Shown: one piece after another, positions 8,405 through 24,282 of the stretch
How positions within the stretch are numbered: the first letter of the stretch is position 1
How the letters are laid out: every line of letters begins with the position of its first letter
Origin: a virus
Lineage: Duplodnaviria > Heunggongvirae > Uroviricota > Caudoviricetes
Reading direction: 5' to 3' (one strand)
DNA length: 26,132 bases
Virus record (IMG/VR): IMGVR_UViG_2529292735_000025
Notes under the pieces: model-generated
What the model saw: the letters and a program-made list of their open reading frames with translations, nothing else
Told to the model about the DNA's origin: nothing
Database searches by the model: none
Translations under genes and position numbers: made by a program

Positions 8405-8944
8405 CTATTCGCTTTCTGAGGTAAGTTTGAGTCCTATCAATGGCTTTTTTAGTTCAAATAATTTAATTGTAGTGCCGTAAGCAAGATTTTCGGGTATTTC
8501 AAGGGAGTCAGCAATATAGTTTTTTGATTCTTTGATACTTTGCTGTAAATCTTTGACATCTACCTCAAAGGCCTGAGGCTGTTCCCCCTTTTTGTACGAA
8601 TAAACTTGGATTTTATTGGCAAGTGAAAACATGGCAAGCTTACCAATACCTTTTCTGCCCATAACTTGACGTTTTAGATGATCGCTTTTGGCTCTTCCAT
8701 GTTCCCTGCGAGCATAACCGACTTTTAGGAACTTATTAATAATGTCATCTTTAGACATGCCATGACCATCATCTTTAATGATGACCTCTCCTTTCTCAAC
8801 ATCAAGTGTAATTTCTACATTTTGAGCATCTGCATCCCATGCATTTGATATAATCTCAGTTAGTACCGCGGGAGTATTGGAATAGAGACTCATCCCTAGG
8901 TGATTTAGCACATTCAAATCAATTTTAATTTCGAAATCTGACAT
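8405..8944 (-). CDS. GHKL-superfamily ATPase domain (N-terminal segment of a frameshifted larger gene)
   Basis: Bergerat-fold motifs in order: N-box EIISNAWDA, G1 IKDDGHGM, G2 GRKGIGKLA, G3 GTTIKL. AAGGAA Shine-Dalgarno 8 nt before ATG 8944. Stops at TAG 8405-8407 just after an A6 run. Confidence 0.8.
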   Translation of the reverse strand: MSDFEIKIDLNVLNHLGMSLYSNTPAVLTEIISNAWDADAQNVEITLDVEKGEVIIKDDGHGMSKDDIINKFLKVGYARREHGRAKSDHLKRQVMGRKGIGKLAMFSLANKIQVYSYKKGEQPQAFEVDVKDLQQSIKESKNYIADSLEIPENLAYGTTIKLFELKKPLIGLKLTSESE

Positions 8945-9187
8945 ATAGTCGTTCCTTGCTGAGAGTTCATTTTAGTTTCATGCAATCAATAGGTTAGGCT
9001 GAAGATAAAACCTTAAGATAACCAAAGCAAGTGTTCATTAGCGGCTTTGTTTCATGACATGATGTGTGTCGCTTTTTGCATGAAACTGCATTTGTTTCTT
9101 ATATCTGCTCTTTTTACATACTGCTAGTGTTGACATGGCTTTGACATGGCTGTGCAACCGCATTAAAACCGCCCCATGAAGCGGGCG

Positions 9188-9206
9188 GGCGAGGCGGGGA
9201 AAGCAC
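9188..9206. other. Probable cos cohesive-end site (GGCGAGGCGGGGAAAGCAC)
   Basis: 19-nt GC-rich sequence matching my recollection of the P2 cohesive end, in the expected place between the accessory locus and portal gene Q. Confidence 0.5.
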
Positions 9207-9344
9207 TGCGCGCTGGCGGTGGTGCTGATTTATTTTTTCAGCGTCTCAGCGCGTCGTAATGGCGCTTAGTCTGCCCGTTGAGGCGTTGGTGTGTCTGCGG
9301 GGTGTTTTGTGCGGTGGTGAGCGTGTGAGGGCGTGATGACGGGG

Positions 9345-9369
9345 TGTAAAAAAGCCGCCCGCAGGCGGC
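9345..9369 (-). terminator. Rho-independent terminator after Q (stem GCCGCC/GGCGGC followed by a T-tract on the minus strand)
   Basis: Hairpin GCCGCC-CGCA-GGCGGC with an adjacent A6 run on the plus strand (T6 on the minus strand), immediately downstream of the Q stop. Confidence 0.55.
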
Positions 9370-9374
9370 GATGT

Positions 9375-21387: not shown

Positions 21388-21910
21388 TTCGCGACTGCTG
21401 CCGACCGGCTCATCACCGCTTGAAGTTGCCGCCGCAAAAGCCTGTGCGGAAATTGAAAAGACACCGGTCAGTATTCGTGAGCTGTGGAACCCGGATACCT
21501 GTCCGGCAAATCTGCTGCCGTGGCTGGCGTGGGCGTTTTCGGTCGACAGGTGGGATGAAAAGTGGCCGGAAGCGACAAAACGCGCCGTTATCCGCGATGC
21601 CTATTTCATCCACTGTCATAAAGGCACTATCGGCGCAATCCGGCGTGTGGTGGAGCCGCTCGGCTATCTCATCAACGTGACGGAGTGGTGGGAAAACAGT
21701 GACCCGCCCGGCACCTTCCGCCTTGATATTGGTGTACTGGAAAGCGGTATCACAGAGGCAATGTATCAGGAAATGGAACGGCTGATTGCTGATGCCAAAC
21801 CTGCAAGCCGTCACCTTATTGGTCTGAACATTACCCGGGACATTCCCGGCTACCTGTTCGCCGGTGGTGTGGCTTATGACGGCGATGTAATTACGGTTTA
21901 CCCCGGATAA
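21380..21910 (+). CDS. I: Baseplate protein I (176 aa)
   Basis: Length and order match P2 I; overlaps the J stop. Confidence 0.85.
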   Translation: MSDSRLLPTGSSPLEVAAAKACAEIEKTPVSIRELWNPDTCPANLLPWLAWAFSVDRWDEKWPEATKRAVIRDAYFIHCHKGTIGAIRRVVEPLGYLINVTEWWENSDPPGTFRLDIGVLESGITEAMYQEMERLIADAKPASRHLIGLNITRDIPGYLFAGGVAYDGDVITVYPG

Positions 21911-21920
21911 GTGAGGAATA

Positions 21921-24170
21921 ATGAGCACAAAATTCAGAACCGTTATCACCACTGCTGGTGCAGCAAAGCTGGCAGCGGCAACCGCGCCGGGAGGGCGGAA
22001 GGTCAACATTACCACGATGGCCGTCGGGGATGGCGGTGGTAAATTGCCTGTCCCGGATGCCGGACAGACCGGGCTTATCCACGAAGTCTGGCGACATGCG
22101 CTGAACAAAATCAGCCAAGACAAACGAAACAGTAATTATATTATCGCAGAGCTGGTTATTCCGCCGGAGGTGGGCGGTTTCTGGATGCGTGAGCTTGGCC
22201 TGTACGATGATGCTGGAACGTTAATTGCCGTGGCGAACATGGCTGAAAGTTATAAGCCAGCTCTTGCCGAAGGCTCAGGGCGTTCGCAGACCTGCCGCAT
22301 GGTCATCATCGTCAGCAGTGTGGCCTCAGTGGCGCTGACCATTGACACCACAACGGTGATGGCAACGCAGGATTACGTTGATGACAAAATTGCAGAACAT
22401 GAACAGTCACGACGTCACCCGGACGCCTCGCTGACCGCCAAAGGTTTTACTCAGTTAAGCAGTGCGACCAACAGCACGTCTGAAACACTCGCCGCAACAC
22501 CAAAAGCGGTAAAAGCAGCATATGACCTTGCTAACGGGAAATACACTGCACAGGACGCCACCACAGCGCGAAAAGGCCTTGTCCAGCTCAGTAGTGCCAC
22601 CAACAGCACGTCTGAAACGCTCGCCGCAACACCAAAAGCGGTAAAAGCAGCATATGACCTTGCTAACGGGAAATACACTGCACAGGACGCCACCACCGCG
22701 CGAAAAGGCCTTGTCCAGCTCAGTAGCGCCACCAACAGCGATTCTGAAACGCTTGCGGCAACGCCAAAGGCGGTTAAGACAGCGTATGACCTTGCTAACG
22801 GGAAATACACTGCACAGGATGCCACCACAGCGCGAAAAGGTCTTGTCCAGCTCAGTAGCGCCACCAACAGTGATTCTGAAACGCTGGCTGCAACACCAAA
22901 AGCGGTGAAGTCTGCCTATGACAATGCTGAAAAACGTCTTCAGAAAGATCAGAACGGTGCGGATATTCCTGATAAAGGACGCTTCCTGAGTAACATTAAT
23001 GTTTACAGCAAAGGTGAAGTGGATAAGAAAAAGGGAATGCGAAAGTATTCGTTTGCAGCCCCTGCAAATGTCGTTGCCGGGAAGTGGTATCCCGTTATCT
23101 TTCGCCGTGCTGCCAGCCTTTCAGGAGAAATGGCATCCCGCGTCGTTATTTCAACTGGTTGTTATAACGGCGATTATGTAATGAATAACTGCGAGTTTAA
23201 TGGCATGGTTATGCCCGGAGGCTGGACCGATCGTGGTTCATATGCGGCAGGTTATTTCTGGACGTATCAGACTAATGAGCGTTCAATCCATTCCATTGTT
23301 ACAAGCCTGAAAGATGATGATGTATGTAGTGTTTTTTATGTTGAAGCCAGAGCTTTCCCTGTACAAATTCTTGCAGAGGAAGGGCTAACGGTTATTGTTC
23401 CGACAGAGGATTATGTCGTCGGTCAAACGACATATAAGTGGGGGGCAACTAATCCCGCTACAGAAAGCACGAACGCACAGGCTATTCTGGATTTTAAAAA
23501 TGGGCGCGGTTATTACTGCTCACATCCATTTATTTCCAGCCTTTCAGGAAATGCTGCAACAGCAACGAAGTTAGCGAATGCAAGAAATATTAATGGTGTC
23601 AGATTTGATGGTTCTGCCGATATAAATATTAATACACTGGTATCCAGAAACCGTGTTACTGCATTAGGTGGGAGCTCAAAGGGTACACCAGGTATTCAGA
23701 TGTATGAGGCATACAACAATGGCTACCCAACAGCCTATGGTAATGTGCTTCATCTCACTGGCGTAACCGCAGTAGGAGAGGGTGAGTTACTTATTGGCTG
23801 GAGTGGAACCAGCGGTGCTCATGCTCCGGCATATATTCGCTCCCGACGAGATACCACAGATGCTAACTGGTCTGGATGGGCGCAACTATATACAACTGCT
23901 CATAAACCCTCAGCGGGAGATGTTGGTGCATACACCAAAGCTGAGTCAGATTCACGTTATGTGAGAGACATGCGACTGGGCGGTGCATCTACATATAAAC
24001 CAGCAAATAATGGTACTACATGGACGCATCAGGCTCCGTCAGGTTGCGTATATACCGGCATTATTGTTCAGGATACCGGCTCAAACTCTGCCGATAACAT
24101 TGGTGGCGTATATTACAGGCCGGTGCAGAAATACATTAACGGGACATGGTATAACGTGGCGCAGGTATAA
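21921..24170 (+). CDS. H: Tail fibre protein H (749 aa) with tandem fibre repeats and a mosaic C-terminal receptor-binding region
   Basis: Conserved N-terminus for baseplate attachment, 44-aa tandem repeats (QLSSATNS.SETLAATPKAVKAAYDLANGKYTAQDATTARKGLV), and an AT-richer C-terminal portion containing a second fibre motif (GNAATATKLANARNINGVRFDGSADINI). Confidence 0.85.
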   Translation: MSTKFRTVITTAGAAKLAAATAPGGRKVNITTMAVGDGGGKLPVPDAGQTGLIHEVWRHALNKISQDKRNSNYIIAELVIPPEVGGFWMRELGLYDDAGTLIAVANMAESYKPALAEGSGRSQTCRMVIIVSSVASVALTIDTTTVMATQDYVDDKIAEHEQSRRHPDASLTAKGFTQLSSATNSTSETLAATPKAVKAAYDLANGKYTAQDATTARKGLVQLSSATNSTSETLAATPKAVKAAYDLANGKYTAQDATTARKGLVQLSSATNSDSETLAATPKAVKTAYDLANGKYTAQDATTARKGLVQLSSATNSDSETLAATPKAVKSAYDNAEKRLQKDQNGADIPDKGRFLSNINVYSKGEVDKKKGMRKYSFAAPANVVAGKWYPVIFRRAASLSGEMASRVVISTGCYNGDYVMNNCEFNGMVMPGGWTDRGSYAAGYFWTYQTNERSIHSIVTSLKDDDVCSVFYVEARAFPVQILAEEGLTVIVPTEDYVVGQTTYKWGATNPATESTNAQAILDFKNGRGYYCSHPFISSLSGNAATATKLANARNINGVRFDGSADININTLVSRNRVTALGGSSKGTPGIQMYEAYNNGYPTAYGNVLHLTGVTAVGEGELLIGWSGTSGAHAPAYIRSRRDTTDANWSGWAQLYTTAHKPSAGDVGAYTKAESDSRYVRDMRLGGASTYKPANNGTTWTHQAPSGCVYTGIIVQDTGSNSADNIGGVYYRPVQKYINGTWYNVAQV
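22452..22925 (+). repeat. About 3.5 tandem copies of a 132-bp (44-codon) in-frame repeat inside H
   Basis: Near-identical 132-bp units beginning around 22452, 22584, 22716 and 22848, visible in both the nucleotide sequence and the translation. Confidence 0.85.
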
Positions 24171-24173
24171 TTT

Positions 24174-24282
24174 ATGCAGCATTTAAAAAATATTACGGCG
24201 GGTAATCCAAAAACGGTTGAACAATATCAATTGACAAAGAACTTTGATGTTGTCTGGTTTTTTCAGAAGATGGTAAGAACTG
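24174..24282 (+). pseudogene. G: Tail fibre assembly gene G, disrupted (N-terminal fragment; continues at 25619-25681 after IS2)
   Basis: [28 protein letters not shown] is the typical G N-terminus. The reading frame shifts inside a T6 run (24258-24263), IS2 is inserted at 24283, and the remaining G sequence (SEDGKNWYEE...TIKIAYDKDN) is cut again by an IS66-type end at 25682. Confidence 0.7.

Follow-up and report, generated by a model that had tools for sequence, protein, structure and literature searches.

The stretch of DNA analysed here (the window, 26,132 nt) is part of contig AIHM01000067.1 of Escherichia coli DEC14C, a draft whole-genome shotgun assembly of the 2012 DEC collection, the strain being identified by its protein names. 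Window and contig are 100% identical with the single exception of one N (the letter that the GenBank record has at window base 26046), and the prophage that the window carries is P2-like. Three genes had been described previously as broken by a -1 frameshift, each inside a six-nucleotide A/T run, and the three runs lie exactly where they had been reported (T6 at 8445-8450, A6 at 19366-19371, and T6 at 24258-24263). The features concerned are as follows.

5897..6946, plus strand: C-5 cytosine DNA methyltransferase, intact, partner of the restriction enzyme (PF00145, 9e-56; PADLOC)
6987..8944, minus strand: predicted BbrUII/HgiDII-family restriction enzyme with an N-terminal GHKL ATPase domain, split into two ORFs
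8445..8450, minus strand: site 1, T6 as shown and A6 in coding sense, within the restriction-enzyme gene (codons 165-167); the closest finished genomes read T7
9226..9228, no strand assigned: fourth one-base deletion, giving T3 where relatives and DEC14B have T4; intergenic
14377, plus strand: private substitution of DEC14C, GGG to GAG, synonymous in gene M; G in every other assembly compared
18627..19411, minus strand: orf30-site gene, when restored a 261-aa membrane protein (phrog_2407)
19366..19371, minus strand: site 2, A6 as shown and T6 in coding sense, within the orf30-site gene (codons 14-16); A7 in relatives
24174..24282, plus strand: 5' fragment of the tail-fibre assembly gene G (PF02413 on the intact homologue)
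24258..24263, plus strand: site 3, T6, codons 29-30 of G; T7 in relatives and in DEC14B
24283..25613, plus strand: IS2 copy inserted in G, 1331 bp, with target duplication AACTG at 24278-24282 and 25614-25618
25682..26132, plus strand: start of an IS66-family element inserted in G, running past the window end; the contig ends about 88 nt later

As drafted, the restriction-enzyme gene is split into an ORF of 179 aa (8405-8944) and one of 333 aa (6987-7988), which rejoin as a 652-aa protein when one base is added at site 1. The restored protein is that of finished strain APEC O2-211 (WP_001279022.1), with 0 mismatches in 1959 nt, and it matches NF050001.1 at 751 bits (cut-off 550), PF13589, and the PADLOC model REase_II (2e-91). 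With a score above the equivalog cut-off and a methyltransferase adjoining, it is predicted to be a member of the BbrUII/HgiDII restriction-enzyme family. The methyltransferase and restriction-enzyme genes are convergent and 40 nt apart, at a position that we take to be the tin/old hotspot of the P2 map. At site 1, T7 is found in all of the RefSeq complete genomes compared (30/30) and in all of the IMG/VR contigs (6/6); T6 is also present in the sibling draft DEC14B and in five non-DEC contigs, on two haplotypes, and two of these five have scaffold names that fit SPIRE (Illumina reads, MEGAHIT). The rare T6 and T8 alleles of this site are confined to draft or metagenome contigs. Assemblies retrieved with fragments of this gene as the query show other lesions of it: T8 in place of T7 at 8236 (in four of them), T8 at site 1, duplication of 8 bp, and two substitutions with a truncated product, likely a stop codon.

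Site 2 falls where the orf30-site gene is predicted to encode an N-terminal membrane helix, and one base added there gives a 261-aa protein identical to WP_001504911.1. Searches of Pfam, PADLOC, and NCBIfam with the restored protein gave no match, and no database record was found for the 252-aa GTG-start product of the gene. Its place between S and V is presumably the P2 orf30 site. The shortening at site 2 recurs in drafts DEC14B and AIHP01, and all 33 IMG/VR matches to the site read A7. P2-family phages have accessory-gene hotspots at the tin/old locus, the orf30 site, and the Z/fun locus, and the arrangement here is alike, with the methyltransferase and restriction enzyme between gene A and cos/Q and the 261-aa membrane protein between S and V; such cargo is nothing unusual, and at least 30 finished genomes of E. 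coli carry the same genes intact.

Gene G differs from the other two in that its run lies 20 nt upstream of an IS2 insertion. The 5' fragment is followed by IS2 and then by another 68 nt of G at 25614-25681, between the two IS elements. IS2 was assigned from the 1331-bp length, the 5-bp target duplication, and a TnpB match of 706 bits (cut-off 597). The inactivation of G is genuine and is due to the IS2 and IS66-family insertions rather than to run length, so that no full G frame can come back with a single added base; the earlier proposal that a seventh base restores each gene held for sites 1 and 2 (652 and 261 aa) and failed for G. The T6 at site 3 is private to the DEC14C draft, and 96/96 IMG/VR matches have 7 nt there (82 T7, 14 TTTTTTA). 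Taken together, the comparison with close relatives that had been suggested gave 7 nt in 30/30 finished genomes for site 1 and in 135/135 IMG/VR matches over all three sites.

The main reference was the finished genome of APEC O2-211, a different strain from DEC14C and hence not its ground truth. Over 24,282 nt, DEC14C differs from it by two substitutions, both transitions, and four one-base deletions, all of which fall in A/T runs. The longest runs in these 24.3 kb are seven 7-mers, three of which hold three of the four deletions, and the other four are called correctly; random placement of three of four deletions into 7-mers has P ~3e-8, so their placement is not due to chance. Measured against the nearest finished copies, the IS2 and IS66-family stretch adds an N, about four substitutions, and five more one-base indels; the whole window shows nine one-base indels (seven in A/T runs) against about six substitutions relative to the nearest finished sequences. 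The preliminary description had missed the T4 to T3 change at 9226-9228, four indels in IS2 orfA (A4 to A3 at 24422, T3 to T2 at 24510, +A at 24632, and +A at 24636), and an A4 to A3 change at 26127-26129 in orfA of the IS66-family element. The four indels that disrupt IS2 orfA are clustered within 215 nt and are probably errors too; the IS2 copy has its own A6G at 24691-24697.

The deletion at 9226-9228 lies about 20 nt from a P2-type cos sequence at 9189-9207. Contigs L014-L018 all end at 9159-9227; their ends were considered as virion DNA cut at cos, and a break of the assembly graph where variable cargo meets conserved phage genes fits equally well. The 3 kb of chromosomal flank (cpxA, cpxR, and cpxP) gave no run errors, its T8 run being correct. 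Although cpxR and cpxP are annotated as shorter there, this agrees with other choices of start codon and not with frameshifts. A second independent assembly of DEC14C was sought via the unique G/IS2 junction product, and the GenBank contig alone carries this junction.

The same kind of difference recurs in other drafts of the DEC collection. The sibling draft DEC14B differs from APEC O2-211 over 27.3 kb by eight one-base indels and one SNP; its indels reach essential phage genes, breaking int, the restriction enzyme (twice), portal gene Q, scaffold gene O, and the orf30-site gene (twice), and DEC14C lacks six of these eight. DEC14B and DEC14C are six indels and one substitution apart over 18.9 kb. 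AIHP01000031.1, a draft of the DEC15 group, carries a different allele of the orf30-site gene, with 11 mismatches, yet has the same T7 to T6 and A6 to A5 changes as DEC14B. The finished O111:H21 strain 15A, a clone-mate of the AIHP01 strain, has T7 and A6 where the draft reads T6 and A5, and these two deletions plus one SNP are the sole differences between the two over 20.3 kb.

Shortening rates pooled over the three drafts (DEC14C, DEC14B, and AIHP01) rise from 0/1433 (0%) for 3-mers to 1/590 (0.17%) for 4-mers, 1/211 (0.5%) for 5-mers, 4/106 (3.8%) for 6-mers, and 6/19 (32%) for 7-mers. All 12 run changes in the three drafts are -1, every one in an A/T run (P = 5e-4 for direction), while 17 non-DEC assemblies show no shortening in 3949 runs (Fisher P = 1.6e-8 vs. 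the DEC drafts). One-base homopolymer indels thus dominate the differences, their frequency climbs steeply with run length in one direction, and lesions are irreproducible between clonal assemblies and absent from a finished clone-mate (the AIHP01/15A pair), all of which were taken as marks of an artefact. Frameshift errors biased to A/T homopolymers and rising with run length have been described for Roche 454 assemblies (Luo et al., 2012; PMC3277595). The DEC drafts resemble these in their one-base A/T-run indels, frequency increase with run length, and artificial frameshifts, and differ from pure homopolymer 454 errors in that a few of their errors are single-base insertions outside runs (IS2 orfA in the window; gene O in DEC14B).

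The three -1 frameshifts are therefore very likely consensus errors of an early draft, produced by under-calling of the longest A/T runs, and not mutations of the organism. The run-length-dependent, deletion-only pattern in A/T runs of the same project's drafts supports the earlier suggestion of homopolymer under-calling over natural mutation. Flow-based (454-type) chemistry at modest coverage may have caused the errors, and each individual site in DEC14C would be one of them. The six-base run is almost certainly an artefact at site 2, with high confidence one at site 3, and likely one at site 1. Against this reading stand the sharing of sites 1 and 2 by DEC14B and DEC14C, which inherited real mutations would also give, and the fact that not all long runs are affected (four 7-mers and the T8 of the flank are correct).

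Site 1 is the place where a real mutation has most to be considered. A genuine slipped-strand deletion inherited by the DEC14 clone, with sites 2 and 3 still errors, is unlikely, though the allele shared by DEC14B and DEC14C, its presence in five non-DEC contigs of two haplotypes including apparently Illumina/MEGAHIT scaffolds, and the independent damage to the same gene elsewhere (T8 at 8236, T8 at site 1, the 8-bp duplication, and the truncated product) speak for it. It would have cost the strain its restriction enzyme and kept the methyltransferase, which is the usual decay of a restriction-modification (R-M) system to an orphan methylase. The uniform T7 of the finished genomes and IMG/VR contigs argues against it, as does the intact restriction enzyme on at least 1000 contigs against six with the T6 fragment; moreover, with 7-mers miscalled at about 30% in this project's drafts, one error common to two of them is unremarkable, and some homopolymer errors also occur in low-coverage Illumina contigs. 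A functional switch role of the runs, as phase-variable contingency tracts or as programmed frameshift sites, with the split genes still expressed, is most improbable. Phase-variable R-M genes with homopolymer tracts are known in Haemophilus, Neisseria, and Helicobacter, and site 1 is like them in that an R-M gene is put off by ±1 in a coding homopolymer of which T6, T7, and T8 alleles all occur in public assemblies; however, typical contingency tracts are longer than 7 nt, whereas this tract has just 7, all 30 finished genomes are "on" with a single uninterrupted ORF, and the change stands in an error-laden draft. Tract-length polymorphism among accurate assemblies was not found at any of the three sites (30/30 and 6/6 at site 1, 33/33 at site 2, and 96/96 at site 3). 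As to programmed frameshifting, A_AAA_AAG is a -1 frameshifting heptamer in E. coli (dnaX, IS3 family), and the T6 allele of site 1 (codons CTA AAA AAG) places this heptamer in the zero frame, and the downstream ORF follows in the -1 frame, so that a -1 slip there would regenerate the wild-type protein exactly. Unlike in dnaX and the IS3 family, the arrangement of two ORFs is not conserved and no stimulatory elements were found at site 1: nothing like a Shine-Dalgarno element lies upstream, and the predicted folding of the 70 nt downstream is no better than that of shuffled sequences (z = 0.66). The two-tRNA slippery heptamer is absent at sites 2 and 3. It is quite improbable, if somewhat less so, that the DEC14 lineage and a few other E. 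coli truly carry T6 at site 1 and that it is a leaky rather than a null allele; as the deletion turns A_AAA_AAA_G into in-frame A_AAA_AAG, slippage of a few per cent would then yield the exact wild-type enzyme and an attenuated, low-dose prophage-borne restriction, and the tract, with its T8 allele, would act as a crude mutational switch.

That all three frameshifts are real, in a decaying prophage or in a mismatch-repair mutator lineage collecting run deletions, is very improbable. G is truly dead through two IS insertions, which makes the prophage defective and relaxes selection on its genes, and both substitutions are transitions, as a mutator would give. Yet indels stand to substitutions at 4:2, 8:1, and 2:1 in the three drafts, whereas diverged natural relatives show one run-length change per hundreds of substitutions and unselected ones show none. 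The deletion-only direction, the N, and the indels clustered in IS2 also count against real lesions. The mutator lineage in particular was rejected, since the sibling drafts differ almost solely by indels and the same two deletions turn up again in another draft of the project, on an unrelated allele, and are missing from the finished clone-mate of that draft.

With the three frameshifts taken as consensus errors, the restriction-enzyme and orf30-site genes are most likely intact in the real strain, beside the intact methyltransferase. The restored proteins carry no amino-acid change and so give no sign of decay, and intact proteins for sites 1, 2, and 3 were seen on at least 1000, 553, and 236 contigs, respectively. 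The possibility raised earlier that defence genes are intact in the organism is thereby strengthened to a probability for the restriction enzyme, identical after restoration to the APEC O2-211 protein. The loss of G to its insertions is a different matter, and the prophage is probably unable to make infectious particles without this tail-fibre assembly gene. The value of the finding is mainly practical: one-base breaks in A/T runs, in this window or in other 2012 DEC drafts, should not be counted as pseudogenes, and where such drafts enter surveys of defence-system presence or of prophage intactness, the number of intact genes will come out too low. The BbrUII/HgiDII-type restriction enzyme and the orf30-site membrane protein of this prophage should accordingly be treated as probably intact.

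The window carries a P2-like prophage with the integrase at its left end, followed by the replication gene A, a cytosine methyltransferase, a GHKL-type gene, cos, Q through S, the orf30-site gene on the minus strand, V through H, and G. An exact-product match and locus tags identify it as part of the GenBank WGS contig AIHM01000067.1 (GCA_000250455.2), a 2012 draft of E. coli DEC14C from the diarrheagenic E. coli (DEC) collection. The pieces of this contig match the window at 100% identity, base 26046 aside, which is N in the GenBank record, A in the window, and C in relatives; the N seems to have been swapped for a base during preparation of the window. 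Window 9189-9207 carries GGCGAGGCGGGGAAAGCAC, a match to the P2 cohesive-end sequence. The 11-nt unit TTGACATGGCT, upstream of the restriction gene, has two tandem copies (window 9119-9140) versus three in strain GPEC1366 (L002 12131-12141), and in tail-fibre gene H a series of 132-nt (44-codon) tandem repeats at 22452-22922, with a mutual identity of about 85-91%, was visible as off-diagonal BLAST matches.

The preliminary description placed a -1 frameshift at a 6-nt A/T run in each of three genes, and the three runs are indeed found at these positions:

8445-8450, T6, site 1, in the restriction (GHKL) gene at 6987-8944, minus strand
19366-19371, A6, site 2, in the orf30-site gene at 18627-19411, minus strand
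24258-24263, T6, site 3, in tail-fibre assembly gene G

Prophages in finished genomes of avian E. coli are the nearest sequences to the window. One of them, in APEC O2-211 (NZ_CP006834.2), has only six differences from window 1-24282:

14377 and 14417, two transitions
8445, one-base deletion, T7 to T6
9226-9228, one-base deletion, T4 to T3
19366, one-base deletion, A7 to A6
24258, one-base deletion, T7 to T6

All three genes are single ORFs in APEC O2-211 (652, 261, and 175 aa), and lengthening the run by one base, as had been proposed, gives restriction and orf30-site proteins identical to those of 652 and 261 aa in finished genomes. When run lengths were counted against this close relative, its stretch proved to have seven 7-mers and none longer, three of which are shortened in the window (P of about 3e-8 for three of seven among four randomly placed deletions). 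Against the best finished references, the whole window has about six substitutions and nine one-base indels, of which seven are deletions in A/T runs. At 14377, in a GGG run of gene M, a synonymous G to A change is private to the DEC14C draft; it may be another consensus error because all other compared assemblies, including the sibling draft DEC14B, have G.

DEC14B (AIHL01000077.1) has the same prophage, with one SNP and eight one-base indels against APEC O2-211 over 27.3 kb:

int, T5 to T4
restriction gene, T6 to T5 and T7 to T6
portal gene Q, T6 to T5
scaffold gene O, +A and +T, 8 nt apart
orf30-site gene, T6 to T5 and A7 to A6

Six of these eight are not in DEC14C, and two of the four DEC14C deletions are not in DEC14B; over 18.9 kb, six indels and one substitution separate the drafts. 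Taking the DEC14B lesions as real mutations is not credible, since integrase, portal, and scaffold would have been lost against one substitution gained. Similarly, AIHP01000031.1, the draft of a DEC15-group strain whose protein names point to DEC15B, carries a different P2-like prophage with an orf30-site gene differing at 11 positions, in which T7 to T6 and A6 to A5 deletions are identical to those of DEC14B. The finished genome of its clone-mate, O111:H21 strain 15A (NZ_CP077477.1), departs from this draft over 20.3 kb only at those two deletions and one SNP, and has an intact orf30-site gene.

In the three DEC drafts pooled, A/T run shortening affects 6/19 7-mers, 4/106 6-mers, 1/211 5-mers, 1/590 4-mers, and 0/1433 3-mers; all 12 run-length changes are deletions, and no G/C run changes length. 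In the same comparison, 17 non-DEC assemblies have no shortening in 3949 runs of at least 4 nt (Fisher P = 1.6e-8). Thus, by three comparisons, the consensus of the DEC project drafts is error-prone. The A/T-biased, length-dependent pattern is like that documented for homopolymers in Roche 454 assemblies (PMC3277595). Substitutions at the 3' edge of T runs were also seen in the DEC14B flank (T8A to T7AA, L001 position 2882) and in Logan contig SRR099102_2511 (T5A to T4AA, window 9115). Errors of this form suggest that the data of SRR099102 could be of the type behind the DEC drafts.

In IMG/VR, sites 1, 2, and 3 have 7 nt in 6/6, 33/33, and 96/96 matches, respectively, and site 1 is T7 in all 30 RefSeq complete E. 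coli genomes carrying the gene. The exact intact restriction, orf30-site, and G proteins are on at least 1000, 553, and 236 contigs, respectively. The orf30-site product, a 261-aa membrane protein, is hydrophobic at its N-terminus and has a sole match to phrog_2407 (function not assigned). Many non-DEC assemblies (L030-L038) have its gene frameshifted elsewhere, by gain or loss of one T in a T6 run (gene positions 279-284) and by -A or +T near position 361, which selection, a hotspot, or errors might explain; its 114-aa C-terminal fragment is present in 58 blocks of the searched collection.

The restored 652-aa protein has a GHKL ATPase domain at its N-terminus and scores 751 bits on the NCBIfam equivalog for BbrUII/HgiDII-family restriction enzymes (cut-off 550); an intact C-5 cytosine methyltransferase gene adjoins it. 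Other lesions of the restriction gene in non-DEC assemblies comprise T7 to T8 at window 8236, shared by four members of a single diverged lineage (L004, L005, L006, and L008), a T8 tract at site 1 in L007, an 8-bp duplication in L010, and substitutions with a truncated product in L011. This suggests that the nuclease has been repeatedly lost in nature, although these assemblies came from fragment searches and are a selected sample of a gene that is seen whole on over 1000 contigs. The methyltransferase is full-length (349 aa) in most of L004-L011 and split in L010. Because the restriction and orf30-site genes are broken elsewhere in non-DEC assemblies, real run mutations do occur in cargo genes, and site 1 may be one.

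That T6 at site 1 is a genuine allele is rather doubtful, though it deserves some weight. It is common to DEC14B and DEC14C and occurs in five non-DEC contigs of two haplotypes, two with scaffold names fitting SPIRE (Illumina reads, MEGAHIT), and the same gene is broken otherwise in the selected sample; however, two drafts sharing T6 are expected by chance at about 30% 7-mer failure, and homopolymer errors are present in low-coverage Illumina contigs too (PMC3277595). Five T6-allele contigs, short metagenome or Logan sequences, all have ends within 9159-9227, near the GGCGAGGCGGGGAAAGCAC site. With the T6 allele, moreover, A_AAA_AAG falls in the zero frame and the gene continues in the -1 frame, so a -1 ribosomal slip would remake the wild-type protein; yet programmed frameshifting is unlikely, as there is no SD-like element upstream and no supporting downstream structure (fold z = 0.66), and finished genomes have one ORF.

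Gene G was also thought to be restored by one base, but this repair fails, for two insertions follow the T6 run, IS2 lying 20 nt downstream:

24283-25613, IS2, 1331 bp, with a 5-bp target duplication AACTG
25682 onwards, past the window end at 26132, IS66-family element, preceded by 68 nt of G after IS2; the contig ends within it

The insertions are recent and strain-specific, because DEC14B has an intact G without IS. G is truly inactivated, by the IS elements, which should make the prophage defective. Compared with two finished IS2-like copies, IS2 orfA has four one-base indels in 215 nt against the nearest (24422-24636; A4 to A3, T3 to T2, and two inserted A; net zero), a cluster suggestive of poor consensus quality across a repeat; the IS66-family orfA has A4 to A3.

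The DEC-draft error pattern, the clone-mate comparison, and the 7-nt state in relatives support the systematic sequencing artefact first suspected. As biology, the three frameshifts are most likely spurious: almost certainly so at site 2, probably so at site 3, and probably so at site 1, where a genuine allele is the less likely alternative. The finding is an ordinary one, of practical rather than biological interest.
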